Part shown: positions 7,001 to 62,988 of the stretch, piece by piece
Layout: each line of letters begins with the position of its first letter
Numbering within the stretch: position 1 is the stretch's first letter
NCBI GenBank assembly: GCA_964016885.1
Contig: OZ024752.1
Span: 5,394,001-5,458,000 of the forward strand
Reading direction: 5' to 3'
DNA from: Eledone cirrhosa
Lineage: Eukaryota
Length of the DNA stretch: 64,000 bases
Position numbers and translations under genes: made by a program
The notes under the pieces: generated by a model
What the model saw: only the letters and a program-made list of their open reading frames with translations
Told to the model about the DNA's origin: nothing
Databases searched by the model: none

Positions 7001-7592
7001 CCTTGAAACTTGCTAGTTTCATACCACCTCAACACTTAATTCCCTTACCTCTCCTTGTTGTGTCCAGGCCTCACACTAACCACTACCCTCAGTCCTTCGT
7101 ACCCACAAATTTATATTATGGAACTCAACTCCTCTTCATGTCTTTCCAGTTGGAGTGGACATGAACAATCTTAAACAAAACACCAATAGCATCAATCTCT
7201 TTGGTCCCTGAAGACCTGTTAAGGCCTTGGGAAATGTCCCTTCTTACAGACCTACCAAGTAAAACAATAAATACTTACTTTTAGGAGTGTTTGGATCATT
7301 AACATAAATATCCCTGGCAGCAGCAGAGGCTTGATCTATAAGAGATGAAATGAAAAATGAGTAAATGTACTGCTTGTGGTGCTTGATATCTGAAGGCTAC
7401 AGGGAAATGAAGTGGGCATGATCATATGGATGTGTGATGTTAATGTACATGATTGACAAAGCATGGATGAGTTGAGAGGAAAACTATGTATAAGAGGAAT
7501 CAAATGGAAGATGATCATTGAAGCAAGAAATGTTAAGAGAGACAAGAGGAAGAAAGATGCAGTAGAGAAAGACTGAGGAGGGCTGAGGAGGT
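4047..7592 (+). repeat. Local segmental duplication, copy 1 (contains an RTE insertion)
   Basis: Near-identical to 9099-10795 apart from the 4331-5903 insertion, the 7232-7469 segment and small indels; the same spurious ORFs appear twice in the track. Confidence 0.93.
4331..5903 (+). mobile_element. 5'-truncated RTE-clade LINE
   Basis: AFVDLEKAFDRV, GVHQGSVLSPLLF, YADD, LRWYGHVMRM, GRPKMTW; 3' UTR ending in a (TGA)n tail; frameshifting duplication near 4580-4610. Confidence 0.93.
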
Positions 7593-7681
7593 GAATGGAG
7601 AGCGACAAATAGACAAAAGTATTTTCCAAGCCTAAAGAAGAAATCAGTTTGGTTATTCTTCCTCTTCTTATTATTATTAGT

Positions 7682-8089: not shown

Positions 8090-8226
8090 TTTCTACAGCT
8101 GAGTAAACTGGAGCAATGTGAAATAAAGTGTTTTGCACAAAGAAACAACACATCACCCGGTCTGAGAATTGAACTCACAACCTTTCGATTGCAAGGCCAA
8201 TGCTCTAACCACTAAGCCATGTGCCT
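8090..8226 (-). mobile_element. tRNA-derived SINE, second family
   Basis: Reverse complement reads ggcttagtggttagagc...gagttcaattctcagacc...cactttatttcacattgctcc, similar to 11596-11715 (+). Confidence 0.65.
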
Positions 8227-10795: not shown

Positions 10796-11595
10796 GATTT
10801 GGAGAGATCTGATCTCAGCAGACTGAAGCTCAGAGAAAAGATTATGAATGTATGATATAAAGTAGAAGGAAACTGTGCTTGAAAGGTCCCATACAGCCCA
10901 TGAAAGCATGAAAAAATAGATGTAAAAAGGAACTGACCAAAGGTCAACAATCTGTTGGGGGAGAGAGGAAGAAATACAAAGACAAAGTTGCTGTCATCTT
11001 GTGGAAATGGAACATTGCTCCTACAGGTGTGGAAACTCTTCCTGCAGATTGAAGCAGATGGCTAATCCTTTGACATCAAGCTTGCGAAATTATTGAGACA
11101 AAGTGTTGTCAATGGCTCAATGGATGTTGAGTGAAGTGTGGTGCAACCACTGCTAGATCACCTCCAACACCCAGCTAATTGATTACTTGACTGACTTGTG
11201 GGAAACTCTGCTACTGGGCTTTTGGTCTCTGCTCACATCAGAACTGAGGGAACTCCAAGCTAAGTTAATTTCACATTTAGAAAAATAACATCTAAATCAT
11301 TTTCTAAATGTATGTATAAAAACGAAGAATATAGCCAAATACCTTGCATTTCTAACTGTTGATTATGCCTGTCACCCACAGAGTCAATATTGTTAATTGC
11401 TGAAAAACAAATCAATAGAATATATTAACTCAAATAGAAATGACAAAATTATGAAGAAACACTAAAGAAATTTCTTTTTAAATTAGCAACTCCTTTTTTT
11501 ATCTTTCAGACTCTTCACCTTATTTCATAATCTATTTTATAACATCTCTTCACATGGGCATGGTATACAACATGTGTTGGTATACATCAGATTGT

Positions 11596-18185: not shown

Positions 18186-21100
18186 TTTACGTCCGCTTTT
18201 TCCTGCTTGGAAGGGTGGGATGGGTCCTCTTCAGCCCAGCATCTCTCCATATGTCACGGTCCTTCGTCATCTCCTTTGTGAGCATCAACGATCTGAGGTC
18301 AGCTCTCACCACCTCCGCCCATGTTTCCCAGGTCTTCCCCTAGTGCATCTTCCTTCCACTGGGATCACCTGGCACTGCCACTTCTTCACCCAGTGGTCAT
18401 CCCTCATGCGCATCAAATGGCTATACCAACAGTCTTCTCTCCTACACACTACAGTTTATTTCTTTTATACACAGTTTCTGTCTCACTTTATTCATGCTTG
18501 GTCTTTCATGCACATTGTTACATATATAGTAACAATTCCTAGCTGTGTATACAGAGCTAACAAAATCAATGTTTGTCCTGTACATGGTAGTGGGATGGTT
18601 AAGTTGAAATATCTAGCCATATATGAAAATCCCTTAGCCATTATCAAATCATTAAAAACTTCTTTCTATGTACAGAAATCAGGTCAAAAGATGATTCAAT
18701 GATGTGCAAAAATGAGATGGAGGAGAGCTTCAACCAGATTCCCTCATAAGCAAAGAGATAAGTGGGAGAGCACACTATTAACAGAAATAGAGAGGTAGTG
18801 TATTTAAAATAGATATCTTTCTTTATTTGCCACAGGGGTGTACAAAAATGGGACATTACAAGACGTGACGGTGGGGGTTTTACATAAAATCTTTAACAAT
18901 GTTCAATAACAAACTATATAAAAATAAAACAATTGAAATCCCCTTTAGGGTGGGGTAGGGGGGCGGGCGACGCTACTGCGGGGTTGTTTTACACCTCGTG
19001 GATAGAACAACCCTCAACACCAGGAACACGTTTTGTAGGTGTTCCCGTCTTCCCTCTGTTTAATGTATTTAAGTTAGATAGTGGTTGCAACAGAATTATT
19101 AGGCCTAGACTAGTCATTGGCATTATAACAACTATTGCTATTTCAATCTACTATATCATAATCAGGACTGATTAATGAATAAAAGAATCTTTTCTATGAG
19201 AACCTCCCTTGAAGACTATCTCCATAACAAGTGACTGCGGCTACATTATTATGGCTGGTGACTTTAAGGGACATGTTAGGAAGTACCAGGATGGCTATTC
19301 TGGAGTAATTGGTGATGAATATGGCTCAAGATGGACTGGGCACTTTTTGTTGTGTCGCCATCATGACCACTTTACAGCGTGGGCTGGGCACTTTTTGTTG
19401 TGTTGCCATCACGACCACTTTACAGTGTGGGCTGGGCACTTTGTGTCAACAACAACACCACCACCACCACCACCACCACCATCACCACTGTATTACAAAG
19501 GTATTTATGTCACGGTAATTGATAAAGCTTTAAAATATGTAAAAATATACCAACCTCTTATCCGGTGGCATCTATAAATAAGAATTCCCAAAATTATTAA
19601 CAATATTACCATTGCTACAGTACAACCAATAATTAGTGTCAAATGATTTTCTGTTTTTACTGAAAATATATATAAAATAAACCAAACATCATCAAACAAG
19701 AAAAATAATTAAAGTAAGGATTATGATGAATCATTCACTAGTCATAATTTGTCTAATATTTTGCAAAGTTCAGTGGTGTATTGGTAGAGGTGCATGGTAG
19801 TGCAGCTGCACACTCCCAAAAATTGTTGTCTGAAAATTATGAATGTCTGTTAGGAGAATACACTTATGGCAAGGTTAGTATATGCATTGGTATGAGTTGG
19901 ACAATCTTTTATATGTCTCAAACCTGTATCATCTTTTCTTTAAGTCACAATCTTTTAAAATCATGTTTGAATATTTCTTTTTCTTTAACCAGTCTAGTGT
20001 CAGACTCGTCAAATTCTTGCCAGCTTGGAAAGCAAATATATGATGGTGATGATGATGATTATCTTCATAACATTGTTTCATTTTGTTACAAATTAGTTAT
20101 CTTCAGGATGAAGTGGTTGGGAGGACTCTTAAGTCCCATCAGGGATATGATAATCTCTGAAGTGCTGCTACCATAATACACTACATAAAATGGTTGGTGT
20201 TGAGAAGGGCATCAGGTCATAGAAAACTTGCCAATTATCCTTATTATTGGAACTTTCCACTGTAAACTCATTATCACAATGTCATTTCTTTCTACTTATA
20301 TTCTTGATTACAATTAATGTATCAATATAAGAAATAACTTTTTATAAACTTTTATTGAATCTTACTGAATGAATATTGTTGAAGGTCTTAAAGTTTTTAT
20401 GGTCGAATCTGTCAAAAAATTATGACAAATGTTCTGGAGACTACATGATTAAAAGTCAACATGAAATTTGCAGTTTGTTCAAATCCAAAAATAACTGGAT
20501 CTTTTGACATTTTGCATAGTGATAAATTTCAGTTTATCAACCAGAATATATTTTAATAATTATGGTCTAGACCAAGAATGAAGAAACCTTCACATGTATT
20601 CAAATTTGTAACTGCCTAATGTCAAAGTCTCTTAAATCACATATGAACAAAATCAGTTTAATCCTTAAGACTAAAACATCATCATCTTCATCATTATCAT
20701 CATTTTATGTCTGTTGTATCAATATAATAATCTTTAAGAGCATAAATTTTTAACAAGAAGACACAGTCAACTCCTGTACTTGGTATTCTTTTATTTACTA
20801 TATAGGGGGACGGATTGTCAGGATCGGTAGGGCATCAGACAATTTGGGCAATCTACAGGTGCAATCTACAGATGCAAGCTCAGAGCAGGTCTTTTCACTC
20901 GGAGTATGTTCGCCACTCTCACCCCCACCTTTCAAAAAACTGGTTTAAAAGTCACTCTCCACCCTGATTTTCCTCATCAAGGGAAACCTGTAAAAGTTAA
21001 TCAGGACTTCACCAAAGAAGAAAGTGCTTGTCTTCAATCCTTTTAAATGTGTCCACCACATGACATCATATGTCATGGCCACCACACAGATAAAAACTGC

Positions 21101-22851
21101 CTGTCTTTCCTGGTTAAAGGAAGGCAGCAGGGTGATCTTGATGATGGACTCAGCTAATAACCGGATTCGTTCTACATGTAATAGAAGGTGTTTGGCATTA
21201 AGCAAGTAAGTTAATGGAGTTAAGTAAATGGAATTAAGCAAGTAAGTTAACATTGAATGAAAGAGGAGAGAAAGCAACAGATAAAGAAAGCAAAGAAAGT
21301 GAGTGACATGCATTTTGATTTATGGAAACACTACTCAAAATAGCATTTGTGAAACTTGTAATTTTTTTTTGCATATTCATTTCTGTTATTATTTTGTTGT
21401 TTCTGAAAGATAACTGAAAGTTAATCCAGTGAGTCCTCATTTAATGAAAAATTGACTCAAACCTTATCTTTTAGAAACAATAACCAATAACTAACTGAAA
21501 GTTAATGCAGTGTGTCCTCATTCAACGAAAATTTGTCTCAAACCTTAGCTTTTGGTCATTGTTTCTAAAAAAAAACTGAAATGTGATGCAGTAAGTCTTT
21601 ATTCAACAAAATTTGACTTGACTTACATCCAACATTAATACAATTTAAAAGAGTACAGATCCCAATTAGACTAAGTTTTGCAATGTTCATCAACAAATCT
21701 TAGAGACAGACATTATCAGTAACTGGTTTGCAATTAGAGGAGCTTTGCTTCTCTCATGAACAATTGTATGTTGGATGCTCATGTATTAGTAGTTCAAAAA
21801 ATCTTTTAATTTATACTCCATTGGGAAAAACTCAATGTATATAAAGAAATTTTGTCATAATTTTGTCATAATAGAGCGGTCACCTAGATGGAACCACCCG
21901 GCGGGCAGGCGCTGCAAAATAACACCCAGGAAACAATCCTTGCATACCAGACCCAGCCTCAGACAAACAGATGCGGCTAAAAAAAAAATAAATTTGCCCG
22001 GGAAAGACTGCCCTAACACTGGCCAGAGTTACCACCCTTGACCTGCTGCAAAATCAAAACAAGATATTTTTGCGAGCAATGAAACTTGTTGTGGATTTAA
22101 CCCCAAAAACTCTTTCCGAGCAATATAAGGAACACTTGTGATTATTTATACCCTTGAGAAGCCCAACTGGGTGAAACGTACGTAGGTGCTGTTTTAAATA
22201 AACATGTTTTAACGGTCTATTCTCCGATTTTTTACTTTCCCACGTGCATATACATACATACATATATATATATACATACATACACATACATACATATATA
22301 TATACATACATACACATACATACATATATATATACATACATACATATATATATATATGTACATACATATATATATATATATATGTACATATATATATATA
22401 TATACATATATATACATACATATATATATATATATACATACATACAAATACATACATATATATACATACATACATATACATACATACATATACACACAAA
22501 CGTACATATACACACAACCATATATACACACAAACATATATATACATATATATAAACATACATAATATATACATACATATATATACACATACATATATAT
22601 AAACATACATATATACACATACATATATATAAACATACATATATACACATACATATATATAAACATACATATATACAAAGATACATAATATATACATACA
22701 TATATATAAACATACATATATATATACACATACATATATATAAACATACATATATACACATACATATATATACACATACATATATATAAACATACATATA
22801 TACACATACATATATATAAACATACATATATACAAACATACATATATATAC

Positions 22852-22885
<34 letters not shown>

Positions 22886-25033
22886 ATACATAAACACACA
22901 CACACATATATACCCTCACACACAGATATTCATATACACCCACATATATATTTTTAAAATTAACTTACCATATACTGTGATGTGGTACATGCTACCATGT
23001 ACATTAGATATGCAAATAATACTCATGTTGTCTTCCTGTATAGTTATATTAATGATAGTCAATGTACAGATAGTATTTTGACAACTAGTTATTTGACGGT
23101 TGCCAAAATATTTATCAAAGCCTGGGTCATTCAATCCATAATATACAGCAATAAGTGATCCATCTCCAGTACGCCAATCTGTAATATCTCCCCTCTTTCT
23201 TACACATTTCAATGTGAAGTTTTTATCTTCTATAGCATTTGGTGTTTCAGAACTTGGGTAAAGATTCTTCCCAGTCTCATCTAAAAACACAAATTAAGAC
23301 GAGATAAAATAAGAATTAATCCAAAATTTAAGAGAAATTTTAACAATAAATTGAAACAAGCCTAATAGTTCATATTCCATTTGTGTGAAGACAGGCAGGG
23401 CTGTGCTGTTTAGCCCATGGAAGCAGGGAAAGCAGATGCAAAGTATGTTGATGATGATGATGATGATAGTGATGATGAGCATAGTATTAGGGGGAGTGGG
23501 GTGTTATATGGAATTGACTTAGATTTTTAGTTGTTTCTTATGTTACATCACCAGTAGCAGCAGCACCACGACCCCCCCAACATCATCATCACTACTACTA
23601 CCACCACCACCAGCACCATCCACCCCCACCACATTCATAGCCATCACTACCACCATCACAACCGCCGCCGCCGTCATCACCACCACCACCACCAACACCA
23701 TCATCAGCATCACCACCAACATCATCACCATCACCATCACCACCACCATCACTGCCAACACCATCATCACCACCACCACCACCACCACCACCACCATCAT
23801 CACCATCACCACCAACATCATCACCACCACCATCACCATCACCACCACCATCACTGCCAACACCATCATCACCATCACCACCACCACCACCATCACTGCC
23901 AACACCACCATCATCATAAATAATACATAAAATAAATTATATTCAGATATAAGATAAATCTAAATGTGCTAAACATGTCACAAAAGAGATTTTATGGAGG
24001 GAAGAGTAAATGGAATGATTCTGAGCAAGAATCATGAGATACAAAATTCAAGTTCAATTTATAATGTGTCACATTAATAGATTTAATAAATGATTTTAAT
24101 GACAATATATAGAGGGCTGATAACTTATTAATATAACTGTTTCTTGTAAAAATATGCTCTTACCAATATACAATAAAATTGTGGTATTAGATAATAATCA
24201 AACTGTAATATCCTGTATCTGTGTGTAGACATACAAAATATATTGTAATACTTTATAAGATCTACAAAATCATTGTTGCTTTATAAGAGAAAGGCAACTT
24301 TCTAACAATAGGAAGTTGAGGGAACAGTGTTAGTTTTTTCAACATTGTTGCTGATATTGTGAGAAATAGCAGCCAAATCTCACCTTACTGTTTTTCAGAT
24401 CATTGTTTAAATCTAGTGACATGAAAATAATATATTAGATAAGGGTCATCTTAACTAAACTGTAATCCTTATAGGTTTGCTTCATTAGGGATGACTTAGG
24501 AATACATAACAACAAATAGGGAGAGGGAAAACAGATTTTATCAAAGAACAAATGAATAATTGAGTAGTTTCTACTGTGTTTTCGGATGAACCAATTAACT
24601 TCAACTGTAAACATTATTTTTAGTTGTTTTACTTCTTTTACATCTAAAATTGAGTTTATGCATTGAATTCTTCAAATCCAGAATTATTCAGGAATAATGT
24701 ACCTGGTGACAATCAAAAGAAGCGAGGTAGGTGTAAAAGCCAAACTCACTATCTTCAATTTGGTATTCATGCCAACCCTTATCTATGGCCATAAATCTTG
24801 GGTAATGACCAAAATACAATCGCAAATACAAGTGGCCGAAATGGGGTTCCTCTGAAGGGTCTTTGGAGTAACGTTACTCGATAGAGTGTATAGCTCAGAG
24901 ATCAGAGAGTCACTCCAGGTAGAACTGCTACTTCTCCAGATTGAGAGATCACAGCTCTGATAATATGGGCATATGGTTAGAATGTCTCAGGGAAGAATTG
25001 GTGAGCAAGAAGAAGGAGGAGAAGAAGAAGGAG

Positions 25034-25085
<52 letters not shown>

Positions 25086-27505
25086 ATGTGTTGATTTTTG
25101 ACAGCTATGGTATAAATGTCTGTAATTTCAAGCTATCTATATTGTCAGGATATTTGTTAGGGAAAAAATGTGAAATGTTATTATGTAAACATTATTTATT
25201 TCAATATAATAAAGAAATATTATTAGAAAGATGAAAACACAAATATAAATGATATAAATAATTATAATTTAGTACTTACTAAATAATGCACGTACTACAA
25301 ATACCATGGTCGCAGTCTTGTTGTGACAGGAAATGTATAAGTTAGTAGCGGAAAGAAGGGTGAAGTGTAAAATATTTGGTTTACTGGACTCCACAGATGC
25401 GTTAAACTTATTATGTACAATAGGCTTCCAATTAGGACTATTAGTTTGCACACCTCGCACCTCCCAGGATGTAATTGTCTCTGGATCATCAATAGGACAT
25501 TGGAAAATTAGGTTTTCATTTACCCTGAGAAATCTTGTACCAACTCTTGTGGTAGGAACTGAAAAAGAACAAAACAAAATATATATATATATACAATTGA
25601 TTACGTTCTTTAATTTTTCTAATGGAAGAGGAACAATTTGAAATAAATTAAAATATTATGGATTACACAGAATTAATTGGAAAATAAATGTTTTATGTAT
25701 ATTTTAAAGCTAAATACAGATATAGTTATTGAGGACTAATGGAATGGAATAAAGTATGAATGTCAGGTTGAAATCCTGCCAATATTTCACAATGGATATC
25801 GAAAATATCACATTGGTGTGAAAGACTAAAAAACTATAATGACATCTACTGATAATAGGAAACAATGTTTGTAAAATAAATGGAAATATCAGCCTGAAAG
25901 CAGACATTCGAATATTAAAGGACATACAACTAATGAACTGGGCATAATTTTGGTCAGAACTGGGCATCCCACAAGATGGTCATCCTGGTGACATAAGAAA
26001 AAAGCACCCTGTCCATCATGTAACATGGATGTGCTGGTGACACCAAAAAGGTATCCAGTCTGCCCTGTAAGATGGTTGTGCTGGTGACATGATGAAAAAG
26101 CACTAAGTCCAGCCTGTTAGATGACCTTTCTGGTGCCACAATAAAAGCACCCAGTCCACACTGTAACAGGTTTGGCCTTAGAAAGATCATCCAGATGAAG
26201 AACCAAACCAAAATACAAATACAAGACATGGTCATTTTATATAATAAACTACTGGATATTGGAGGAAACAGTGTGATATTTCACACACTCCACTTTATAC
26301 AATAAACTACTGGATATTGGAGGAAACAGTGTGATATTTCACACATTCCACCTTATACAATAAACTACTGGATATTGGAGGAAACAGTGTGATATTTCAC
26401 ACATTCCACCTTATACAATAAACTACTGGATATTGGAGGAAACAGTGTGATATTTCACACATTCCACCTCATACAATAAACTACTGGATATTGGAGGAAA
26501 CAGTGTGATATTTCACACATTCCACCTCATACAATAAACTACTGGATATTGGAGGAAACAGTGTGATATTTCACACATTCCACCTTATACAATAAACTAC
26601 TGGATGTTGGAGGAAACAGTGTGATATTTCACACATTCCACCTTATACAATAAACTACTGGATGTTGGAGGAAACAGTGTGATATTTCACACATTCCACC
26701 TTATACAATAAACTACTGGATATTGGAGGAAACAGTGTGATATTTCACACATTCCACCTTATACAATAAACTACTGGATATTGGAGGAAACAGTGCGATA
26801 TTTCACACATTCCACCTCATACAATAAACTACTGGATATTGGAGGAAACAGTGTGATATTTCACACATTCCACCTTATACAATAAACTACTGGATATTGG
26901 AGGAAACAGTGTGATATTTCACACATTCCACCTTATACAATAAACTACTGGATATTGGAGGAAACAGTGTGATATTTCACACATTCCACCTTATACAATA
27001 AACTACTGGATATTGGAGGAAACAGTGTGATATTTCACACATTCCACCTTATACAATAAACTACTGGATGTTGGAGGAAACAGTGTGATATTTCACACAT
27101 TCCACCTCATACAATAAACTACTGGATATTGGAGGAAACAGTGTGATATTTCACACATTCTACCTTATACAATAAACTACTGGATATTGGAGGAAACAAT
27201 GTGATATTTCACACACTCCACCTTATACAATAAACTACTGGATGGTGTTGTTATATGCACCATTTTCTAATTTTGTCGTGCGTAATGCTAAGAGCACTAA
27301 TTGAGGTTCTTCGCCACTTTTGAATGCCTTTTTTATTGTCTGTATATTTCTCTCAAAGTGTATAGCTCAGAGATCAGAGAGTCACTCCAGGTAGAACTGC
27401 TACTTCTCCAGATTGAGAGATCACAGCTCTGATAATATGGGCATATGGTTAGAATGTCTCAGGGAAGAATTGGTGAGCAAGAAGAAGGAGGAGAAGAAGA
27501 AGGAG

Positions 27506-27572
<67 letters not shown>

Positions 27573-27609
27573 CATACATATATATATATACATACATATA
27601 TATATATAT

Positions 27610-27654
<45 letters not shown>

Positions 27655-30600
27655 CATATATATATATATGTACATACATATATATATATATATATATGTA
27701 CATATATATATATATATACATATATATACATACATATATATATATATATATACATACATACAAATACATACATATATATATATACATACATACATATATG
27801 GTGGCTGCCAACTCGTTTTCGAGTACGGCCACTACTTTATATTCATGTAGGAGAACCCATACCGATGCGCTGAACGTGTGTGACTTTTTAGTCCAGCCAG
27901 CGACTTGAAAACTCTGGTACAAACATTACACTTGTGATAATCATTGACACATAGTGCTGGTCCCATGTGACAACAAGTGCAGAGAGATCTCCAGATATAA
28001 AGCAATGCCTGTGCCATGAAGCTTTTATAGTGAGCAAAGGCAGTGCACAAGGCCAGTCCCACTCTCTTGACCAAGATGATATTTACCAAAAAGAAGAACA
28101 AGTCAACATCATTTGATACCATCAGGGTTGCAGGTGTTATATCAGAGTTTTCCTTCTCCTAGAATTCTGCCTTGACAAAGGCTAAGGGATCATCTCTCCC
28201 GGTGATTTTGGATGGCCATTGACTCTTAAGAGCTCCTTTGCCCTTTGACAGGTTTTGTTTTTTAGTCCTGCAGGATGTCCAAAGTCACCCTCCTCACCAA
28301 GAAACCTTGGTGGGGTTGCCAGTTTAGTCGCCAACAACCCGACCATGAGACAGGTTGTACTGGGATACATGTTACCAGTAGCACCAACTGGTGACCTGAC
28401 ATATATATATATATACATACATACAAATACATACATATATATATATACATACATACATATACATACATACATATACACACAAACGTACATATACACACAA
28501 CCATATATACACACAAACATATATATACATATATATAAACATACATAATATATACATACATATATATACACATACATATATATAAACATACATATATACA
28601 CATACATATATATAAACATACATATATACAAAGATACATAATATATACATACATATATATAAACATACATATATATATACACATACATATATATAAACAT
28701 ACATATATACACATACATATATATACACATACATATATATAAACATACATATATACACATACATATATACAAACATACATATATATACATACATACATAT
28801 ATATACATACACATACATATATATACATAAACACACACACACATATATACCCTCACACACAGATATTCATATACACCCACATATATATTTTTAAAATTAA
28901 CTTACCATATACTGTGATGTGGTACATGCTACCATGTACACTAGATCTGCAAATAATACTCATGTTGTCTTCCTGTATAGTTATATTAATGATAGTCAAT
29001 GTACAGATAGTATTTTGACAACTAGTTATTTGACGGTTGCCAAAATATTTATCATTGCCTATGTCATTCAATCCAATATATACAGCAATAAGTGATCCAT
29101 CTCCAGTACGCCATATTGTAATATCTCCCCTCTTTCTTACACATTTCAATGTGAAGTTTTTATCTTCTATAGCATTTGGTGTTTCAGAACTTGGGTAAAG
29201 ATTCTTCCCAGTCTCATCTAAAAACACAAATTAAGACGAGATAAAATAAGAATTAATCCAAAATTTAAGAGAAATTTTAACAATAAATTGAAACAAGCCT
29301 AATAGTTCATATTCCATTTGTGTGAAGACAGGCAGGGCTGTGCTGTTTAGCCCATGGAAGCAGGGAAAGCAGATGCAAAGTATGTTGATGATGATGATGA
29401 TGATAGTGATGATGAGCATAGTATTAGGGGGAGTGGGGTGTTATATGGAATTGACTTAGATTTTTAGTTGTTTCTTATGTTACATCACCAGTAGCAGCAG
29501 CACCACGACCCCCCCAACATCATCATCACTACTACTACCACCACCACCAGCACCATCGACCCCCACCACATTCATAGCCATCACTACCACCATCACAACC
29601 GCCGCCGCCGTCATCACCACCACCACCACCAACACCATCATCAGCATCACCACCAACATCATCACCATCACCACCACCATCACTGCCAACACCATCATCA
29701 CCACCACCACCACCACCACCACCACCAACACCATCATCACCATCACCACCAACATCATCACCACCACCATCACCATCACCACCACCATCACTGCCAACAC
29801 CACCACCACCACCACCACCATCACTGCCAACACCACCATCATCATAAATAATACAAAAAATAAATTATATTCAGATATAAGATAAATCTAAATGTGCTAA
29901 ACATGTCACAAAAGAGATTTTATGGAGGGAAGAGTAAATGGAATGATTCTGAGCAAGAATCATGAGATACAAAATTCAAGTTCAATTTATAATGTGTCAC
30001 ATTAATAGATTTAATAAATGATTTTAATGACAATATATAGAGGGCTGATAACTTATTAATATAACTGTTTCTTGTAAAAATATGCTCTTACCAATATACA
30101 ATAAAATTGTGGTATTAGATAATAATCAAACTGTAATATCCTGTATCTGTGTGTAGACATACAAAATATATTGTAATACTTTATAAGATCTACAAAATCA
30201 TTGTTGCTTTATAAGAGAAAGGCAACTTTCTAACAATAGGAAGTTGAGGGAACAGTGTTAGTTTTTTCAACATTGTTGCTGATATTGTGAGAAATAGCAG
30301 CCAAATCTCACCTTACTGTTTTTCAGATCATTGTTTAAATCTAGTGACATGAAAATAATATATTAGATAAGGGTCATCTTAACTAAACTGTAATCCTTAT
30401 AGGTTTGCTTCATTAGGGATGACTTAGGAATACATAACAACAAATAGGGAGAGGGAAAACAGATTTTATCAAAGAACAAATGAATAATTGAGTAGTTTCT
30501 ACTGTGTTTTCGGATGAACCAATTAACTTCAACTGTAAACATTATTTTTAGTTGTTTTACTTCTTTTACATCTAAAATTGAGTTTATGCATTGAATTCTT

Positions 30601-30951
30601 CAAATCCAGAATTATTCAGGAATAATGTACCTGGTGACAATCAAAAGAAGCGAGGTAGGTGTAAAAGCCAAACTCATTATCTTCAATTTGGTATTCATGC
30701 CAACCCTTATAAATCTTGGGTAATGACCAAAATACAATCGCAAATACAAGTGGCCGAAATGGGGTTCCTCTGAAGGGTCTTTGGAGTAACGTTACTCGAT
30801 AGAGTGTATAGCTCAGAGATCAGAGAGTCACTCCAGGTAGAACTGCTACTTCTCCAGATTGAGAGATCACAGCTCTGATAATATGGGCATATGGTTAGAA
30901 TGTCTCAGGGAAGAATTGGTGAGCAAGAAGAAGGAGGAGAAGAAGAAGGAG

Positions 30952-31007
<56 letters not shown>

Positions 31008-34000
31008 ATGTGTTGATTTTTGACAGCTATGGTATAAATGTCTGTAATTTCAAGCTATCTATATTGTCAGGATATTTGTTAGGGAAAAAATGTGAAATGT
31101 TATTATGTAAACATTATTTATTTCAATATAATAAAGAAATATTATTAGAAAGATGAAAACACAAATATAAATGATATAAATAATTATAATTTAGTACTTA
31201 CTAAATAATGCACGTACTACAAATTCCATGGTCGCAGTCTTGTTGTGACAGGAAATGTATGAGTTAGTAGCGGAAAGAAGGGTGAAGTGTAAAATATTTG
31301 GTTTACTGGACTCCACAGATGCGTTAAACTTATTATGTACAATAGGCTTCCAATTAGGACTATTAGTTTGCACACCTCGCACCTCCCAGGATGTAATTGT
31401 CTCTGGATCATCAATAGGACATTGGAAAATTAGGTTTTCATTTACCCTGAGAAATCTTGTACCAACTCTTGTGGTAGGAACTGAAAAAGAACAAAACAAA
31501 ATATATATATATATACAATTGATTACGTTCTTTAATTTTTCTAATGGAAGAGGAACAATTTGAAATAAATTAAAATATTATGGATTACACAGAATTAATT
31601 GGAAAATAAATGTTTTATGTATATTTTAAAGCTAAATACAGATATAGTTATTGAGGACTAATGGAATGGAATAAAGTATGAATGTCAGGTTGAAATCCTG
31701 CCAATATTTCACAATGGATATCGAAAATATCACATTGGTGTGAAAGACTAAAAAACTATAATGACATCTACTGATAATAGGAAACAATGTTTGTAAAATA
31801 AATGGAAATATCAGCCTGGAAGCAGACATTCGAATATTAAAGGTCATACAACTGCTGAACTGGGCATAATTTTGGTCAGAACTGGGCATCCCACAAGATG
31901 GTCATCCTGGTGACATAAGAAAAAAGCACCCTGTCCATCATGTAACATGGATGTGCTGGTGACACCAAAAAGGTATCCAGTCTGCCCTGTAAGATGGTTG
32001 TGCTGGTGACATGATGAAAAAGCACTAAGTCCAGCCTGTTAGATGACCTTTCTGGTGCCACAATAAAAGCACCCAGTCCACACTGTAACAGGTTTGGCCT
32101 TAGAAAGATCATCCAGATGAAGAACCAAACCAAAATACAAATACAAGACATGGTCATTTTATATAATAAACTACTGGATATTGGAGGAAACAGTGTGATA
32201 TTTCACACACTCCACTTTATACAATAAACTACTGGATATTGGAGGAAACAGTGTGATATTTCACACACTCCACCTTATACAATAAACTACTGGATATTGG
32301 AGGAAACAGTGTGATATTTCACACATTCCACCTTATACAATAAACTACTGGATGTTGGAGGAAACAGTGTGATATTTCACACATTCCACCTTATACAATA
32401 AACTACTGGATATTGGAGGAAACAGTGTGATATTTCACACATTCCACCTTATACAATAAACTACTGGATATTGGAGGAAACAGTGTGATATTTCACACAC
32501 TCCACCTTATACAATAAACTACTGGATATTGGAGGAAACAGTGTGATATTTCACACATTCCACCTTATACAATAAACTACTGGATGTTGGAGGAAACAGT
32601 GCGATATTTCACACATTCCACCTTATACAATAAACTACTGGATGTTGGAGGAAACAGTGTGATATTTCACACATTCCACCTTATACAATAAACTACTGGA
32701 TGTTGGAGGAAACAGTGTGATATTTCACACATTCCACCTTATACAATAAACTACTGAATGTTGGAGGAAGCAGTGTGATATTTCACACACTCCACCTTAT
32801 ACAATAAACTACTGGATGTTGGAGGAAACAGTGCGATATTTCACACATTCCACCTTATACAATAAACTACTGGATATTGGAGGAAACAGTGTGATATTTC
32901 ACACACTCCACCTCATACAATAAACTACTGGATATTGGAGGAAACAATGTGATATTTCACACACTCCACCTTATACAATAAACTACTGGATATTGGAGGA
33001 AACAGTGTGATATTTCACACATTCCACCTTATGTGATATTTCACACATTCCACCTTATACAATAAACTACTGGATATTGGAGGAAACAGTGTGATATTTC
33101 ACACACTCCACCTTATACAATAAACTACTGGATGTTGGAGGAAACAGTGTGATATTTCACACACTCCACCTTATACAATAAACTACTGGATATTGGAGGA
33201 AACAGTGTGATATTTCACACATTCCACCTTATACAATAAACTACTGGATATTGGAGGAAACAGTGTGATATTTCACACACTCCACCTTATACAATAAACT
33301 ACTGGATGTTGGAGGAAACAGTGTGATATTTCACACACTCCACCTTATACAATAAACTACTGGATATTGGAGGAAACAGTGTGATATTTCACACACTCCA
33401 CCTTATACAATAAACTACTGGATATTGGAGGAAACAGTGTGATATTTCACACACTCCACCTTATACAATAAACTACTGGATGTTGGAGGAAACAGTGTGA
33501 TATTTCACACATTCCACCTTATACAATAAACTACTGGATATTGGAGGAAACAGTGTGATATTTCACACACTCCACCTTATACAATAAACTACTGGATATT
33601 GGAGGAAACAGTGTGATATTTCACACATTCCACCTCATACAATAAACTACTGGATGTTGGAGGAAACAATGTGATATTTCACACATTCCACCTTATACAA
33701 TAAACTACTGGATATTGGAGGAAACAGTGTGATATTTCACACATTCCACCTTATACAATAAACTACTGGATGTTGGAGGAAACAGTGTGATATTTCACAC
33801 ATTCCACCTTATACAATAAACTACTGGATATTGGAGGAAACAGTGTGATATTTCACACATTCCACCTTATACAATAAACTACTGGATATTGGAGGAAACA
33901 GTGTGATATTTCACACATTCCACCTTATACAATAAACTACTGGATGTTGGAGGAAACAGTGTGATATTTCACACATTCCACCTTATACAATAAACTACTG

Positions 34001-35193
34001 GATATTGGAGGAAACAGTGTGATATTTCACACACTCCACCTTATACAATAAACTACTGGATATTGGAGGAAACAGTGTGATATTTCACACATTCCACCTC
34101 ATACAATAAACTACTGGATATTGGAGGAAACAATGTGATATTTCACACATTCCACCTTATACAATAAACTACTGGATATTGGAGGAAACAGTGTGATATT
34201 TCACACATTCCACCTTATACAATAAACTACTGGATGTTGGAGGAAACAGTGTGATATTTCACACATTCCACCTTATACAATAAACTACTGGATATTGGAG
34301 GAAACAGTGTGATATTTCACACATTCCACCTTATACAATAAACTACTGGATATTGGAGGAAACAATGTGATATTTCACACATTCCACCTTATACAATAAA
34401 CTACTGGATATTGGAGGAAACAGTGTGATATTTCACACATTCCACCTTATACAATAAACTACTGGATGTTGGAGGAAACAGTGTGATATTTCACACATTC
34501 CACCTTATACAATAAACTACTGGATATTGGAGGAAACAGTGTGATATTTCACACATTCCACCTTATACAATAAACTACTGGATATTGGAGGAAACAGTGT
34601 GATATTTCACACATTCCACCTCATACAATAAACTACTGGATATTGGAGGAAACAGTGCGATATTTCACACACTCCACCTTATACAATAAACTACTGGATA
34701 TTGGAGGAAACAGTGTGATAATTCACACATTCCACCTTATACAATAAACTACTGGATGTTGGAGGAAACAGTGTGATATTTCACACATTCCACCTTATAT
34801 AATAAACTACTGGATGTTGGAGGAAACAGTGTGATATTTCACACATTCCACCTTATACAATAAACTACTGGATATTGGAGGAAACAGTGTGATATTTCAC
34901 ACACTCCACCTTATACAATAAACTACTGGATGGTGTTGTTATATGCACCATTTTCTAATTTTGTCGTGCGTAATGCTAAGAGCACTAATTGAGGTTCTTC
35001 GCCACTTTTGAATGCCTTTTTTATTGTCTGTATATTTCTCTCAAAGTGTATAGCTCAGAGATCAGAGAGTCACTCCAGGTAGAACTGCTACTTCTCCAGA
35101 TTGAGAGATCACAGCTCTGATAATATGGGCATATGGTTAGAATGTCTCAGGGAAGAATTGGTGAGCAAGAAGAAGGAGGAGAAGAAGAAGGAG

Positions 35194-35274
<81 letters not shown>

Positions 35275-35311
35275 CATACATATATATATATACATACATA
35301 TATATATATAT

Positions 35312-35356
<45 letters not shown>

Positions 35357-38300
35357 CATATATATATATATGTACATACATATATATATATATATATATG
35401 TACATATATATATATATATACATATATATACATACATATATATATATATACATACATACAAATACATACATATATATATATACATACATACATATATGGT
35501 GGCTGCCAACTCGTTTTCGAGTACGGCCACTACTTTATATTCATGTAGGAGAACCCATACCGATGCGCTGAACGTGTGTGACTTTTTAGTCCAGCCAGCG
35601 ACTTGAAAACTCTGGTACAAACATTACACTTGTGATAATCATTGACACATAGTGCTGGTCCCATGTGACAACAAGTGCAGAGAGATCTCCAGATATAAAG
35701 CAATGCCTGTGCCATGAAGCTTTTATAGTGAGCAAAGGCAGTGCACAAGGCCAGTCCCACTCTCTTGACCAAGATGATATTTACCAAAAAGAAGAACAAG
35801 TCAACATCATTTGATACCATCAGGGTTGCAGGTGTTATATCAGAGTTTTCCTTCTCCTAGAATTCTGCCTTGACAAAGGCTAAGGGATCATCTCTCCCGG
35901 TGATTTTGGATGGCCATTGACTCTTAAGAGCTCCTTTGCCCTTTGACAGGTTTTGTTTTTTAGTCCTGCAGGATGTCCAAAGTCACCCTCCTCACCAAGA
36001 AACCTTGGTGGGGTTGCCAGTTTAGTCGCCAACAACCCGACCATGAGACAGGTTGTACTGGGATACATGTTACCAGTAGCACCAACTGGTGACCTGACAT
36101 ATATATATATATACATACATACAAATACATACATATATATATATACATACATACATATACATACATACATATACACACAAACGTACATATACACACAACC
36201 ATATATACACACAAACATATATATACATATATATAAACATACATAATATATACATACATATATATACACATACATATATATAAACATACATATATACACA
36301 TACATATATATAAACATACATATATACAAAGATACATAATATATACATACATATATATAAACATACATATATATATACACATACATATATATAAACATAC
36401 ATATATACACATACATATATATACACATACATATATATAAACATACATATATACACATACATATATACAAACATACATATATATACATACATACATATAT
36501 ATACATACACATACATATATATACATAAACACACACACACATATATACCCTCACACACAGATATTCATATACACCCACATATATATTTTTAAAATTAACT
36601 TACCATATACTGTGATGTTGTACATGCTACTATGTACACTAGATATGCAAATAATACTCATGTTGTCTTCCTGTATAGTTATATTAATGATAGTCAATGT
36701 ACAGATAGTATTTTGACAACTAGTTATTTGACGGTTGCCAAAATATTTATCAAAGCCTGGGTCATTCAATCCATAATATACAGCAATAAGTGATCCATCT
36801 CCAGTAAACCAATATGTATAATCTCCCCTCTTTCTTACACATTTCAATGTGAAGTTTTTATCTTCTATAGCATTTGGTGTTTCAGAACTTGGGTAAAGAT
36901 TCTTCCCAGTCTCATCTAAAAACACAAATTAAGACGAGATAAAATAAGAATTAATCCAAAATTTAAGAGAAATTTTAACAATAAATTGAAACAAGCCTAA
37001 TAGTTCATATTCCATTTGTGTGAAGACAGGCAGGGCTGTGCTGTTTAGCCCATGGAAGCAGGGAAAGCAGATGCAAAGTATGTTGATGATGATGATGATG
37101 ATAGTGATGATGAGCATAGTATTAGGGGGAGTGGGGTGTTATATGGAATTGACTTAGATTTTTAGTTGTTTCTTATGTTACATCACCAGTAGCAGCAGCA
37201 CCACGACCCCCCCAACATCATCATCACTACTACTACCACCACCACCAGCACCATCCACCCCCACCACATTCATAGCCATCACTACCACCATCACAACCGC
37301 CGCCGCCGTCATCACCACCACCACCACCAACACCATCATCAGCATCACCACCAACATCATCACCATCACCATCACCACCACCATCACTGCCAACACCATC
37401 ATCACCACCACCACCACCACCACCACCACCATCATCACCATCACCACCAACATCATCACCACCACCATCACCATCACCACCACCATCACTGCCAACACCA
37501 TCATCACCATCACCACCACCACCACCATCACTGCCAACACCACCATCATCATAAATAATACATAAAATAAATTATATTCAGATATAAGATAAATCTAAAT
37601 GTGCTAAACATGTCACAAAAGAGATTTTATGGAGGGAAGAGTAAATGGAATGATTCTGAGCAAGAATCATGAGATACAAAATTCAAGTTCAATTTATAAT
37701 GTGTCACATTAATAGATTTAATAAATGATTTTAATGACAATATATAGAGGGCTGATAACTTATTAATATAACTGTTTCTTGTAAAAATATGCTCTTACCA
37801 ATATACAATAAAATTGTGGTATTAGATAATAATCAAACTGTAATATCCTGTATCTGTGTGTAGACATACAAAATATATTGTAATACTTTATAAGATCTAC
37901 AAAATCATTGTTGCTTTATAAGAGAAAGGCAACTTTCTAACAATAGGAAGTTGAGGGAACAGTGTTAGTTTTTTCAACATTGTTGCTGATATTGTGAGAA
38001 ATAGCAGCCAAATCTCACCTTACTGTTTTTCAGATCATTGTTTAAATCTAGTGACATGAAAATAATATATTAGATAAGGGTCATCTTAACTAAACTGTAA
38101 TCCTTATAGGTTTGCTTCATTAGGGATGACTTAGGAATACATAACAACAAATAGGGAGAGGGAAAACAGATTTTATCAAAGAACAAATGAATAATTGAGT
38201 AGTTTCTACTGTGTTTTCGGATGAACCAATTAACTTCAACTGTAAACATTATTTTTAGTTGTTTTACTTCTTTTACATCTAAAATTGAGTTTATGCATTG

Positions 38301-38668
38301 AATTCTTCAAATCCAGAATTATTCAGGAATAATGTACCTGGTGACAATCAAAAGAAGCGAGGTAGGTGTAAAAGCCAAACTCACTATCTTCAATTTGGTA
38401 TTCATGCCAACCCTTATCTATGGCCATAAATCTTGGGTAATGACCAAAATACAATCGCAAATACAAGTGGCCGAAATGGGGTTCCTCTGAAGGGTCTTTG
38501 GAGTAACGTTACTCGATAGAGTGTATAGCTCAGAGATCAGAGAGTCACTCCAGGTAGAACTGCTACTTCTCCAGATTGAGAGATCACAGCTCTGATAATA
38601 TGGGCATATGGTTAGAATGTCTCAGGGAAGAATTGGTGAGCAAGAAGAAGGAGGAGAAGAAGAAGGAG

Positions 38669-38722
<54 letters not shown>

Positions 38723-41700
38723 ATGTGTTGATTTTTGACAGCTATGGTATAAATGTCTGTAATTTCAAGCTATCTATATTGTCAGGATATTTGTTAGGGA
38801 AAAAATGTGAAATGTTATTATGTAAACATTATTTATTTCAATATAATAAAGAAATATTATTAGAAAGATGAAAACACAAATATAAATGATATAAATAATT
38901 ATAATTTAGTACTTACTAAATAATGCACGTACTAGAAATACCATGGTCGCAGTCTTGTTGTGACAGGAAATGTGAAAGTATCCAGCGGAAAAAAGGGTGA
39001 AGTGTAAAATATTTGGTTTACTGGACTCCACAGATGCGTTAAACTTATTATGTACAATAGGCGTCCAATTAGGACTTTTAGTGTACACACCTCCCACCTT
39101 CCAGGATGTAATTGTCTCTGGATCATCAATAGGACATTGGAAAATTAGGTTTTCATTTACCCTGAGAAATCTTGTACCAACTCTTGTGGTAGGAACTGAA
39201 AAAGAACAAAACAAAATATATATATATATACAATTGATTACGTTCTTTAATTTTTCTAATGGAAGAGGAACAATTTGAAATAAATTAAAATATTATGGAT
39301 TACACAGAATTAATTGGAAAATAAATGTTTTATGTATATTTTAAAGCTAAATACAGATATAGTTATTGAGGACTAATGGAATGGAATAAAGTATGAATGT
39401 CAGGTTGAAATCCTGCCAATATTTCACAATGGATATCGAAAATATCACATTGGTGTGAAAGACTAAAAAACTATAATGACATCTACTGATAATAGGAAAC
39501 AATGTTTGTAAAATAAATGGAAATATCAGCCTGGAAGCAGACATTCGAATATTAAAGGTCATACAACTGCTGAACTGGGCATAATTTTGGTCAGAACTGG
39601 GCATCCCACAAGATGGTCATCCTGGTGACATAAGAAAAAAGCACCCTGTCCATCATGTAACATGGATGTGCTGGTGACACCAAAAAGGTATCCAGTCTGC
39701 CCTGTAAGATGGTTGTGCTGGTGACATGATGAAAAAGCACTAAGTCCAGCCTGTTAGATGACCTTTCTGGTGCCACAATAAAAGCACCCAGTCCACACTG
39801 TAACAGGTTTGGCCTTAGAAAGATCATCCAGATGAAGAACCAAACCAAAATACAAATACAAGACATGGTCATTTTATATAATAAACTACTGGATATTGGA
39901 GGAAACAGTGTGATATTTCACACACTCCACTTTATACAATAAACTACTGGATATTGGAGGAAACAGTGTGATATTTCACACACTCCACCTTATACAATAA
40001 ACTACTGGATATTGGAGGAAACAGTGTGATATTTCACACATTCCACCTTATACAATAAACTACTGGATGTTGGAGGAAACAGTGTGATATTTCACACATT
40101 CCACCTTATACAATAAACTACTGGATATTGGAGGAAACAGTGTGATATTTCACACATTCCACCTTATACAATAAACTACTGGATATTGGAGGAAACAGTG
40201 TGATATTTCACACACTCCACCTTATACAATAAACTACTGGATATTGGAGGAAACAGTGTGATATTTCACACATTCCACCTTATACAATAAACTACTGGAT
40301 GTTGGAGGAAACAGTGCGATATTTCACACATTCCACCTTATACAATAAACTACTGGATGTTGGAGGAAACAGTGTGATATTTCACACATTCCACCTTATA
40401 CAATAAACTACTGGATGTTGGAGGAAACAGTGTGATATTTCACACATTCCACCTTATACAATAAACTACTGGATGTTGGAGGAAGCAGTGTGATATTTCA
40501 CACACTCCACCTTATACAATAAACTACTGGATGTTGGAGGAAACAGTGTGATATTTCACACATTCCACCTCATACAATAAACTACTGGATGTTGGAGGAA
40601 ACAGTGTGATATTTCACACATTCCACCTTATACAATAAACTACTGGATGTTGGAGGAAACAGTGTGATATTTCACACATTCCACCTTATACAATAAACTA
40701 CTGGATGGTGTTGTTATATGCACCATTTTGTAATTTTGTCGTGCGTAATGCTAAGAGCACTAATTGAGGTTCTTCGCCACTTTTGAATGCCTTTTTTATT
40801 GTCTGTATATTTCTCTCAACCATGCCATTTGCTTGATGATAATGTGGGCTTGTTTTCGTGTGATAAAAATGCCAATTTTTTGCAAACTTTTTAAATTCAG
40901 CCGAATTGAACTCTGGACCGTTGTCACTGACAACTGTTTGTGGAATGCCGAATTTGGCAAAAGTTTCTTTTATTATTTTGATTACAGTTTTTGACTGGCA
41001 ATCATTTATTTCGTGTAAATCAAAAAATCTTGTTGTATAGTCAATGATTGTGACATACGAATTTCCAGACAGGTGAAATATGTCTGTACCTACTTTGGTC
41101 CATGGTGTAGTAGGTATTTCATGATTTATTAGTGGTTCGGCTGGTTGTTGATTTTTCTAATCGATGCAGTATGAGCATGTGTTAATCATGTCTTTGATTT
41201 GAGCGTTAATGCCGGGCCAGTATATACATTCCTTGGCTCGCTCTGTGCATTTTTCAATACCCATGTGTCCGGTATGTATTTCCTGTAGAGCTTCTCTACG
41301 TAATGACTTAGGTACAATGATTCTTGGACCTTTTAGAACGAGGCCATTGACGATCGATATTTCATCACGAACAGAGACGAATGGTTTAATGTTTGTTGGT
41401 ATTTTGTCTTTTGGGGGCCATTCTGTTCTTGTATATGTGATGAGTGTCTGTAGTGACGAGTCGTGTGCAGTGGCTTCTTTGTACTCGTTTAATTTAGTGT
41501 CGGTTATGGGGTAATTTTTTATTACTGCATGTATGTGCGATTTCATATCTTCGTCTGATACTTCTGGAGTATTTTGTTCAAGGTATGCACGTGATAGAGT
41601 ATCTGCAACAACTGATTCTTTACCAGGTATGTAGTTTAGGTCAAAATCGTATCTTTGTAATTGCTAGTAGAAATCTTTGGATTCTGGGGGGGCATTTAGT

Positions 41701-47700: not shown

Positions 47701-50700
47701 ACATTCCACCTTATACAATAAACTACTGGATATTGGATGAAACAGTGTGATATTTCACACATTTCACCTTATACAATAAACTACTGGATGTTGGAGGAAA
47801 CAGTGTGATATTTCTCACATTCCACCTTAAACAATAAACTACTGGATATTGGAGGAAACAGTGTGATATTTCACACATTTCACCTTATACAAGAAACTAC
47901 TGGATGTTGGAGGAAACAGTGTGATACTTCACACATTTCACCTTATACAATTAACTACTGGATATTGGAGGAAACAGTGTGATATTTCACACATTCCACC
48001 TTATACAATAAACTACTGGATGTTGGAGGAAACAGTGTGATATTTCACACATTTCACCTTATACAATAAACTACTGGATGTTGGAGGAAACAGTGTGATA
48101 TTTCTCACATTCCACCTTAAACAATAAACTACTGGATGTTGAAGGAAACAGTTTGGTCTTTCACAAAGTGAAAGTAGAGTATATTTAGAACAGATCTGTT
48201 AATTACATCAAGTCAATTAATTACCTACCTATACTGTATTGATAAAATTGTTAGCACATTTAAAATACCTGTAATAAGTAGTTATGTTTCTTTTTCTACG
48301 AAGTTTATATTCTATCATACTAACAATACCTTCTGTGGTTGATCAACTAAAGTACCAGTCAAGTATTGGAGATCAATTTAATATAACTAAAAGGCAACAA
48401 TCTGTCCTGACAAATCTTTCCCATTACATTTGTATAGATGTGTTTTGATATATATTGTCATGTTTTTTCTACATTCTCTATCTCACTTTTTACATCTTTT
48501 TCTGTTTCCTTCTTTACAAATTCTGTGTTCAACCAACTGCATAATATCTAATTATATAATGGTTCACTTAATACAATCCTGAATCTATACAGTAGTTGTG
48601 ATAACAGTTGTAAACAGTCAGGTTCAAATAACTATATAGTTGCCTAATCTGTAAGACATAGTAACAAAAGGAATCATGTGTGTGAGAAATATAATACCCA
48701 TGTCTGGAACAACATTAATCCTAGATCTGTTTGATCAGTGTTAACTTTAGGATCAAATAACAGAATCACTGATGAGTTTCTTAATTCTATCAACAAATGA
48801 GACTTTCTCATAAGTAATTGTTTTGAAAAATAAATTCGATCTTTATATTAGAAACATATTACCTACCGTAGCTGTGTAATTGTGAGATTTGTGTGATTAA
48901 CAAAAGTTTCAAAAATAACAGATTCAATTCCATTATCTGTATATAAAAGAAAAATGTTGATATGAATAACAATATTTTCTACAAATAAAGAACATCTAGT
49001 CAATGAAAGGACAATGTAAAGAATCATTTGACATTAATGGTTTCTGATTTAGGCACAAGGTCAACAATTATGGGTGAGGGGAATATCAATTAAATCAATC
49101 TCAGTGCATTACTGGTACTTTATTTTGTTGACAATGTAAGGATGAAAGGCAAAGTTAACCTTGGTAGGATTTGAACTCAGAACATAGCAGGCCATAATTA
49201 TATGCCACAATAATTATATGCCACATAATTATATGACCCCCAAATACAGGTCCATAATCCATTACTGATATAAAAAGATTATATTTTACAGGGTAACTCT
49301 TGTTGACATGTTAAAAAATAATAATTGATTTATGTCTGGACTATATGAAGGTGTCTGACTGCCACTCATGGATACTAGAGTCACTATGCCTTGTTAAATT
49401 TCCATGACCATAGCTGAAGCCATTCAAAAACTGACTGTTATATGTCCACTCAGCTGTATTGAATAACTACTTCAGTTTTAGTCACAGACAGAATTGGTGT
49501 ATTGACAGGAATATTTCATGGTGACAGCTTGTCTGTAATAATATTTGTGCTGACTGTGACTCTATTGTTAGCCCTGTTACATGCTTGTCAGTATAGAAGA
49601 CAGAAAGGTTAATATCACTTATACCTTTTTCATGATGTCCTTAAGTACCAAGAGAAAGTTACATCAGGTCACAGCATCTCACAGGTCATAATAACAGAAG
49701 TACAATAGATTTGGTAGTAAACTGTGGTAAATTGTCAAGAGGAGACTATGTATGTCAATGGCCTGTCTATTTCACCTATCTCCAGTGGTGAATGCTACAA
49801 GTAACTTGGAATAGATGAGAATATTATATATGATGTTTGTTCCAAATGTAAAGGTACTGATGTTTCATTTAAATGTGTATTAGACATATATGAAATTACA
49901 AGTTAGCTCCTTCAAAATACAGTAGTTCTAATATTTATTCCGTTGATCATAGCAGCCTGGAAGTAATTTTCTGTGAGTGTCCTTATCTCATCAGTTTCAA
50001 TTTTTTTTCAACAGTCCCAAAATGATGACCCTTTAGCTGCAATTTCAACTTAGGAAAGAGGTAGAAACCACACAGAGCTCAATCTGAGCTGTTGTAAAGA
50101 TGTGGAATAATGGGAATGTTTTTCTTTGCTAGAAATTCTCAAATTGAAAATGCTGTGTTTGGGCACTACCTTTGCACAAATTTTTCACATGTGCAAATGG
50201 TGTGTTAAAATTCTGTGAACTCCATTTTAATCCAAGCACATAATCAGCAATCTTTCCTCATCACCCCTCATACTACTTCTACATTGTGTTCATTTGTTGA
50301 CGAGATTGACCTTCCAGAATGAGATCAGTCTTCAACATTTTCCTGGCCCTGTTTGAAAGCTGTGTACCTCTTAAAAACTTTAGGAGATTAGTATCGGTGT
50401 ACATATAACATAAAATAAAAGACAGTAAATACCGGTGTGTGTTGTAATAATGTTTTACTTCATAGAAGTCAAAGGTATTAAATATTAAGGATTCGTTACC
50501 CGATGGTCACAACTCCAGGCTGAAGTTGGTAGAGAAAAGAAGAGATCTTTTCTAGCTGGTATTAACATGTTAGGCTCTCAGGCTGCAAGTTGCATTGTTC
50601 TTGGTAGCGAAGGATTATCAAAAATGAATCATCTCAAGCTAAGGTCGCAGGTGTTACCACTTCGGAAATCAGGAGGCAAGAGGGAGATATCATGGTGACC

Positions 50701-62846: not shown

Positions 62847-62945
<99 letters not shown>

Positions 62946-62988
62946 CACATACACACATACATATACATATATACATACATATACATAT

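Follow-up and report, generated by a model that had tools for sequence, protein, structure and literature searches.

A minus-strand gene with three A-B units

The window analyzed here is a 64,000-nt stretch of the 3.0-Gb Eledone cirrhosa genome, C12:5394001-5458000 (C12 is contig OZ024752.1); coordinates are window positions unless C12 or C1 is given. We found that it holds a minus-strand gene, G1, in which six exons predicted to encode immunoglobulin (Ig) domains form three tandem units of one A and one B exon each. The gene runs in the order signal, A3, B3, A2, B2, A1, B1, transmembrane (TM), tail exons. It has two paralogs on the same contig, G2 and G3. The features are as follows:

48867..48936, minus strand: predicted signal-peptide exon (AG/GT ends, ends in phase 1, resembles the N termini of homologues)
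38917..39195, minus strand: Ig exon A3 (279 nt, phase 1-1, open)
36604..36915, minus strand: Ig exon B3 (312 nt, phase 1-1, open)
31202..31480, minus strand: Ig exon A2 (279 nt, phase 1-1, open)
28906..29217, minus strand: Ig exon B2 (312 nt, phase 1-1, open)
25280..25558, minus strand: Ig exon A1 (279 nt, phase 1-1, open)
22969..23280, minus strand: Ig exon B1 (312 nt, phase 1-1, open; predicted V-like fold, extra Cys66/Cys71 pair)
19555..19659, minus strand: predicted TM exon (phase 1-1, matches the TM segment of homologue P0001)
11343..11399, minus strand: predicted cytoplasmic exon 1 (splice sites; kept in both paralogs)
7279..7335, minus strand: predicted cytoplasmic exon with a YxN motif (4 copies in G2, 3 in G3)
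C12:5390803-5390838: predicted tail exon with a hexamer of the immunoreceptor tyrosine-based inhibitory motif (ITIM) consensus, just beyond the window
21873..40820, minus strand: three tandem genomic units (~21873-27356, ~27357-35044, ~35045-40820)
26237-27243, 32159-34931, 39874-40707 and 44241-48165: intronic arrays of a 58-bp satellite, found upstream of each A exon

Since there is a single signal exon and a single TM exon, one gene contains all three A-B units as modules; the same pair of exons rules out that each unit is a separate gene. The signal exon is the sole copy in the window, with one per paralog in all three paralogs, and the TM exon, likewise single, has 96-99% identity in both paralogs. 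All six Ig exons share identical AG/GT surroundings, and since all are phase 1-1 with lengths that are multiples of 3, any ordered subset of them stays in frame. The units measure ~5.5 to 7.7 kb each, their introns are ~99.8% identical outside simple repeats, and the satellite arrays are a possible substrate for unequal crossing-over. Upstream, 51195-51206 may be a short first exon; it includes an ATG and shows 98% conservation in G3. The same upstream region recurs in inverted orientation at C12:5381286-5381414, ~13 kb beyond the window start, and also beside G2.

B1 is present in four sequencing runs, none of which is recorded as RNA. In one of these, X1, a contig covers B1 end to end with 0 differences and then runs directly into the end of A1, a join that is absent from the three DNA-like runs. 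We take this join as a spliced transcript, and X1 is regarded as transcript-like because the A1-B1 join is exon-exact, which is the sole ground for doing so. X1 contigs also break at the second and third bases of the exon after B. The TM exon starts with TA, A exons with TTC, and C2 (an Ig exon of the paralogs) with TTT, and the breaks would be consistent with more than one exon type, A included, coming after B. Among the matches listed, no X1 contig carried letters specific to A2, A3, B2, or B3; contigs drop variants, so this is no sign of silence. Neither the signal exon nor the TM exon was seen in RNA among the run contigs. In the DNA-like runs, two variant letters of A2 fit a contig of X4, B2-type letters are found in contigs of X3, and B2, A2, and B3 3'-end letters lie in separate contigs.

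These observations bear on whether the A-B units serve as cassettes that substitute for one another between the signal and TM exons, with one or a few isoforms per cell, as in Dscam or the protocadherins. In Dscam1 and the clustered protocadherins, too, a tandem array of variant extracellular exons precedes membrane and tail exons that all variants share, and the single signal and TM exons of G1, with ordered Ig-exon subsets that are all in frame, would suit such a scheme. However, the X1 break positions would fit B-to-A read-through, the distant relative P0043 is annotated in its gene model with A-B repeats in one chain, and identical splice sites offer no obvious means of choosing. Among the matches listed, the assembled contigs gave no evidence of exclusive exon choice, and the A1-B1 join is seen. 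G1 also differs in having only three units, no Fn3 domain, and whole two-domain modules; Dscam has 10 Ig and 6 Fn3 domains, an architecture not found in the G1 family. We consider cassette choice quite unlikely.

Variable sites on the predicted Ig fold

Among the three copies, 22 codons of A and B are variable (10 in B, 12 in A), and every one of the 22 carries replacements. Numbering in B starts at the first complete codon of B1, and its landmarks are W35 and C89. Its sites (B1/B2/B3) are I/I/Y32 (W-3), D/I/Y34 (W-1), R/R/F36 (W+1), Y/I/Y47, P/I/P52, F/N/F54, I/R/I90 (C+1), N/S/S92 (C+3), G/G/S95, and H/H/N99. In A, anchored on W32 and C78, they are 33 (W+1), 35 (W+3), 38 (W+6), 40 (W+8), 45, 69, 72-75, 86, and 88. 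The first-pass annotation had described the B changes around the Trp, in the next strand and loop, at C+1 and C+3, and in the G strand, and the three-copy comparison reproduces them. It had also placed A changes at W+1, W+3, W+6, and W+8, before the second Cys, and in the G strand; all were found, together with sites 45 and 69. Most of the variation in A comes from A3, which lay outside the range that annotation covered (22969..36915). Two N-glycosylation sequons are gained on or beside the face considered below, through H99N in the G strand of B3 and at N43 in A3.

The exons have diverged by replacement alone while the introns remained near-identical. With microsatellites and simple repeats excluded from the introns, 33/591 exon columns are variable versus 5/2204 intron columns (Fisher p = 4e-18), and the replacement rate is ~30 times the intron rate. 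The all-replacement result has p ~0.005; silent steps number at most 2/33 (p ~0.018). At least two bases (two or three) have changed in 9 codons, which 0/100,000 random draws reproduced. Because silent-only codon changes are absent (p ~0.005), neutral drift or intron homogenization alone is insufficient. Could the pattern instead be an artefact of assembly errors, or of introns homogenized around freely drifting exons? The region is repeat rich, and the unit structure is that of the assembly. However, 0/22 variable codons are silent-only, none of the 13 A/B exons of the genome has a stop or frameshift, and the bias toward one face is strong. Moreover, B2, A2, and B3 3'-end letters come from separate contigs of the DNA-like runs, and the flanks of G1 and G2 are unrelated. 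This explanation is already largely refuted, and we regard it as very improbable.

The Ig folds are predicted from structure models. None of the six exons scored above the cutoff of the Pfam Ig profile, and only A3 matched weakly (ig, E = 0.031); downstream domains of homologues do pass it. The Cys/Trp/Cys hallmark of the immunoglobulin superfamily (IgSF) is invariant in all genome copies (C21, W32, and C78 in A; C25, W35, and C89 in B) and kept in homologues with little or no change. An AlphaFold2 model of B1 has a mean predicted local distance difference test score (pLDDT) of 78, with residues 1-15 unreliable, and seven strands (21-26, 32-37, 42-47, 62-67, 70-75, 85-90, and 95-100). Its best structural match is CD4 D1 (Z = 11.2, root mean square deviation of 2.3 over 92 residues), and its Foldseek matches are all V-type. 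V-set domains are marked by a C'' strand and a D-x-G/A-x-Y-x-C motif. The B1 model has no clear C'' strand and lacks the tyrosine corner, though its best matches are V-type. B also has an extra pair, Cys66 and Cys71 (window 23082 and 23067), at the D-E hairpin; it is kept in most of the family and is likely a second disulphide. For A, the fold comes from the model of an Octopus bimaculoides homologue, P0033 (32% identical), with a pLDDT of 75-88 over A and Ig domains as nearly all top matches (Z ~6). The A strands were transferred from it; the rest of that model, including its B part, is unusable (mean pLDDT, 41.6). A complex prediction for A1 and B1 that used no alignments (score, 0.13; mark, 0.34) counts as evidence neither way.

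On these predicted strands, the variable sites fall mainly on one face in both domains, as the first-pass annotation had proposed for the outward side of the GFCC' sheet. Outward here means strand parity counted from inward anchor residues, not solvent accessibility, and the C' and G anchors were picked from hairpin register and conservation, which makes them partly circular. By this measure, 13 of the 14 strand sites point outward on G-F-C-C' (7/7 in B, p = 3e-5; 6/7 in A, p = 6e-4), and none lies on the opposite sheet, where 0/39 positions of the A', B, D, and E strands vary. On the C and F strands alone, which are anchored on the Trp and the Cys, 6/7 sites are outward. It is thus likely that, in both domains, positive selection has been altering the outward G-F-C-C' face predicted here.

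Paralogs and octopod relatives

The two paralogs lie at 9.16-9.22 Mb (G2) and 39.25-39.29 Mb (G3). G3 has A, B, C2, and five further Ig exons before its TM exon (8 Ig exons). G2 has three B exons, two A exons, and C2, and a 200-N assembly gap may hold a third A. Relative to G2, G1 has lost C2 as well. The G1/G2 local duplication spans ~77 kb and is 94-98% identical. Because the flanks are unrelated, G2 is not simply the second haplotype; we ruled that out, as the homology is local only and the flanks differ over 80-100 kb on each side. Intron breakpoints suggest an order of events in which a G3-like ancestor lost its middle Ig exons, the A-B pair was triplicated, and C2 was then lost in G1. 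The intron blocks that hold predicted tyrosine-motif tail exons (3582-11560, also C12:9133879-9156613 and C12:39225676-39245362) are repeated 3 to 4 times in G2 and G3; therefore, tail length also shifts by tandem duplication.

Across all genome copies (7 B, 6 A), the same positions vary, with 9/11 strand sites on the face in B (p = 2e-5) and 10/23 in A (p = 0.008). The face is also enriched among A homologues of other Octopus species (p = 0.002). Among informative sites of B, 52/136 pairs are incompatible with one tree, conflicts that would fit exchange between copies or repeated mutation; the copies have the look of mosaics. A tree of 21 B domains is mostly unresolved, with the B copies of this genome grouping apart from those of other species at weak support (55/94).

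Protein searches returned 2, 11, and 11 matches, all from Octopus or Argonauta and all "uncharacterized" or "Ig-like" save two WD40 proteins among the 11 matches of the last search, which we dropped as spurious. The protein atlas held only unnamed or generic Ig clusters. By these searches, credible relatives were found only in octopods, none with an assigned name. They include LOC106874069, LOC106869178, LOC106879981, and LOC128247863/4 of O. bimaculoides; LOC115212114/116 and LOC118763632 of O. vulgaris and O. sinensis; and GAB1598814.1 of Argonauta hians. Identity to the octopod relatives is 50-58% for B and 23-35% for A, and 44% for the Argonauta B. They are alike in a signal-A-B-C2-Ig(n)-TM-tyrosine tail layout, with variation at the same face positions and tails rich in tyrosine motifs. 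They have one A-B pair followed by more Ig domains, whereas the Ig exons that precede TM in G1 consist solely of three A-B pairs. Two distant relatives, P0043 (O. vulgaris CAI9723261.1) and P0045 (O. sinensis LOC118763565), have gene models with A-like and B-like domains repeated per chain. A lone, distant B-like Ig exon (31-37% identity) lies at C1:171633786-171634052 (L070), with no other family exon within 120 kb.

Mobile elements and repeats elsewhere in the window are as follows:

40820-44240: long terminal repeat-retrotransposon-like element that splits the 58-bp satellite between the signal exon and A3; protease, reverse transcriptase (RT), and integrase-like frames with stops; same insertion in G2
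49-3359 (window start): second Ty3/gypsy-like pol; broken protease, RT, RNase H, and integrase frames
53903-54847: 66-bp tandem repeat, 10 copies, with an open frame, within the tail of an RTE-like long interspersed nuclear element (LINE)
60040-63006, 13551-16032, and 4173-5602: several RTE-like LINE copies; in one, the endonuclease and RT frame is open over 988 codons

A probable diversified receptor face and its possible ligands

Our preferred reading, to which we give a probability of about 0.5, is that G1 belongs to an octopod-restricted IgSF family, that its A-B pair was very recently triplicated, and that selection acts on the outward G-F-C-C' face, the most likely ligand being microbial or parasitic. 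Unequal crossing-over or gene conversion would copy and mix A-B modules, probably promoted by repeats, and selection would retain new surface residues on the face. The likely product is a type I receptor, signal-(A-B)x3-TM, with shorter in-frame skipped forms possible. As many as three A-B pairs would be on display, no two with the same outward sheet face, and the receptor may signal through tyrosine motifs in its tail. The selection signal and other IgSF families suggest that the variable surface binds something. We put a microbial or parasite ligand first because the diversity lies between copies in one genome with rapid gain and loss of domains, because two variants gain sequons on or next to the face, and because the same combination is known from CEACAMs.

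In its mode of action, G1 probably resembles CEACAMs, Hydractinia Alr2, or amphioxus VCBP, in which selection concerns a sheet face. We file it under none of Alr, CEACAM, VCBP, and Dscam, because it lacks defining features of each. The CEACAM N domain lacks the B-F disulphide, and only this domain is variable and binding in CEACAMs, whereas both domains of G1 vary and keep both cysteines. We found no sequence relationship to CEACAMs, the credible homologues being only octopod. CEACAMs combine selection at bacterium-bound surfaces with gene conversion (PMC8860441), and the selection falls on the CFG face (PMC7042247). G1 shares with them this face selection, paralog gene conversion, some homogenized introns with diverging Ig exons, and tyrosine tails, each as far as predicted for G1. 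In VCBPs of amphioxus and Ciona, two V-like domains stand in tandem, and their hypervariable sites occupy the surfaces of beta-sheets, not loops (PMC7916673, PMC12051499), a likeness that covers the sheet-surface variability across both domains. However, VCBPs are secreted with a C-terminal chitin-binding domain, whereas G1 is predicted to be membrane bound with a TM exon; no chitin-binding Pfam family was found in its homologues.

The same signature arises in other settings. Reproductive proteins evolve with the same replacement excess, so G1 could encode a sperm-egg or male-female recognition protein under sexual conflict. A testis-specific, recently duplicated CEACAM with CFG-face selection offers a precedent (PMC7042247). 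On the other side, a signaling-tyrosine tail and 4 to 6 paralogs per species seem more typical of immune receptors, and we hold a reproductive role to be improbable.

Self-recognition is the main rival, because selection in Alr2 falls on the C/C' side (PMC8282982). Here G1 would be a polymorphic self/non-self adhesion receptor whose faces bind identical or matching faces and whose variants are new identities. In Alr2, the C/C' side of domain 1 bears both the selected sites and the specificity mutations (PMC8282982). In Alr genes, too, each domain has its own exon, a TM exon is present, and the tails contain tyrosine motifs (PMC9546547). Alr1 and Alr2 further resemble G1 in divergent Ig domains barely seen by Pfam and in clustered duplicates (PMC8282982, PMC9546547). 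In G1 the exon per Ig domain is present, as are the predicted single-pass TM and tyrosine-motif tail. X1 and X4 share at least two A variants unlike all six assembled A exons, and these may be alleles, although one extra A variant could sit in the 200-N gap of G2. Variation in G1 is mostly between paralogous copies in one genome, even in one gene, which departs from Alr. G1 is also without the Fn3-like juxtamembrane domain: no Fn3-like spacer exon was found between B1 and TM, and no Fn3 Pfam family was found in P0001 or P0002. Protein searches gave no cnidarian matches, though such divergent domains may escape them. Octopuses are not known to fuse as colonies. We judge self-recognition of this kind to be unlikely. 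A version of octopods' own is unlikely as well: polymorphic recognition in which A-B cassettes are shuffled by gene conversion, chosen or skipped in splicing, and homophilic, so that each animal or cell has a private set of faces. A link to octopus skin self-recognition found no support here and was omitted from the explanations.

Several observations weigh against a microbially driven receptor with a diversified sheet face. The signature cannot identify the driver, because homophilic Alr2 is reported with the same one (PMC8282982). Variation also extends beyond the sheet: 8/22 sites are in loops (B52 and B54 in C'-D; B92 in F-G; A35, A45, A69, A72, and A73), and C'-D, F-G, and E-F loops all hold variable sites. 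The first-pass claim of a surface on the sheet rather than on loops like complementarity-determining regions (CDRs) was thus overstated, but the sheet bias stands, and in the three copies of the window the B-C (CDR1-like) loop does not vary. Similarly, its statement that core residues are invariant holds save for A74 (L/S/F), which has inward parity four residues before the second Cys, is Ser in A2, and is hydrophobic in homologues. For B, face enrichment among other-species homologues is not significant (p = 0.25). A full six-domain transcript was not observed among the run contigs, and our search did not find the last tail exon of G1, whose tail is predicted. Strict ITIM or immunoreceptor tyrosine-based switch motifs occur only in some family tails, and the corresponding activation motif occurs in 0/8 homologue tails.

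In the literature we found no paper on the family, in a search outside which lay supplements and subscription journals, where gene ids may stand in tables. Nor did the literature searches turn up a diversified cephalopod recognition receptor. What is new is the octopod family itself and the diversification of both domains of a repeated module inside one gene; the principle of selection on the G-F-C-C' face was already known. Among known analogues it is unusual for both domains of a repeated module to vary, and 22 residues and a named candidate family are now testable. If polymorphic recognition of the octopods' own were true, cephalopods would have a counterpart of Alr or Dscam, and the gene would be a candidate molecule for self-recognition. 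Because the introns are ~99.8% identical while the predicted face changed ~30 times faster, swaps among the copies could reveal the origin of new specificities.

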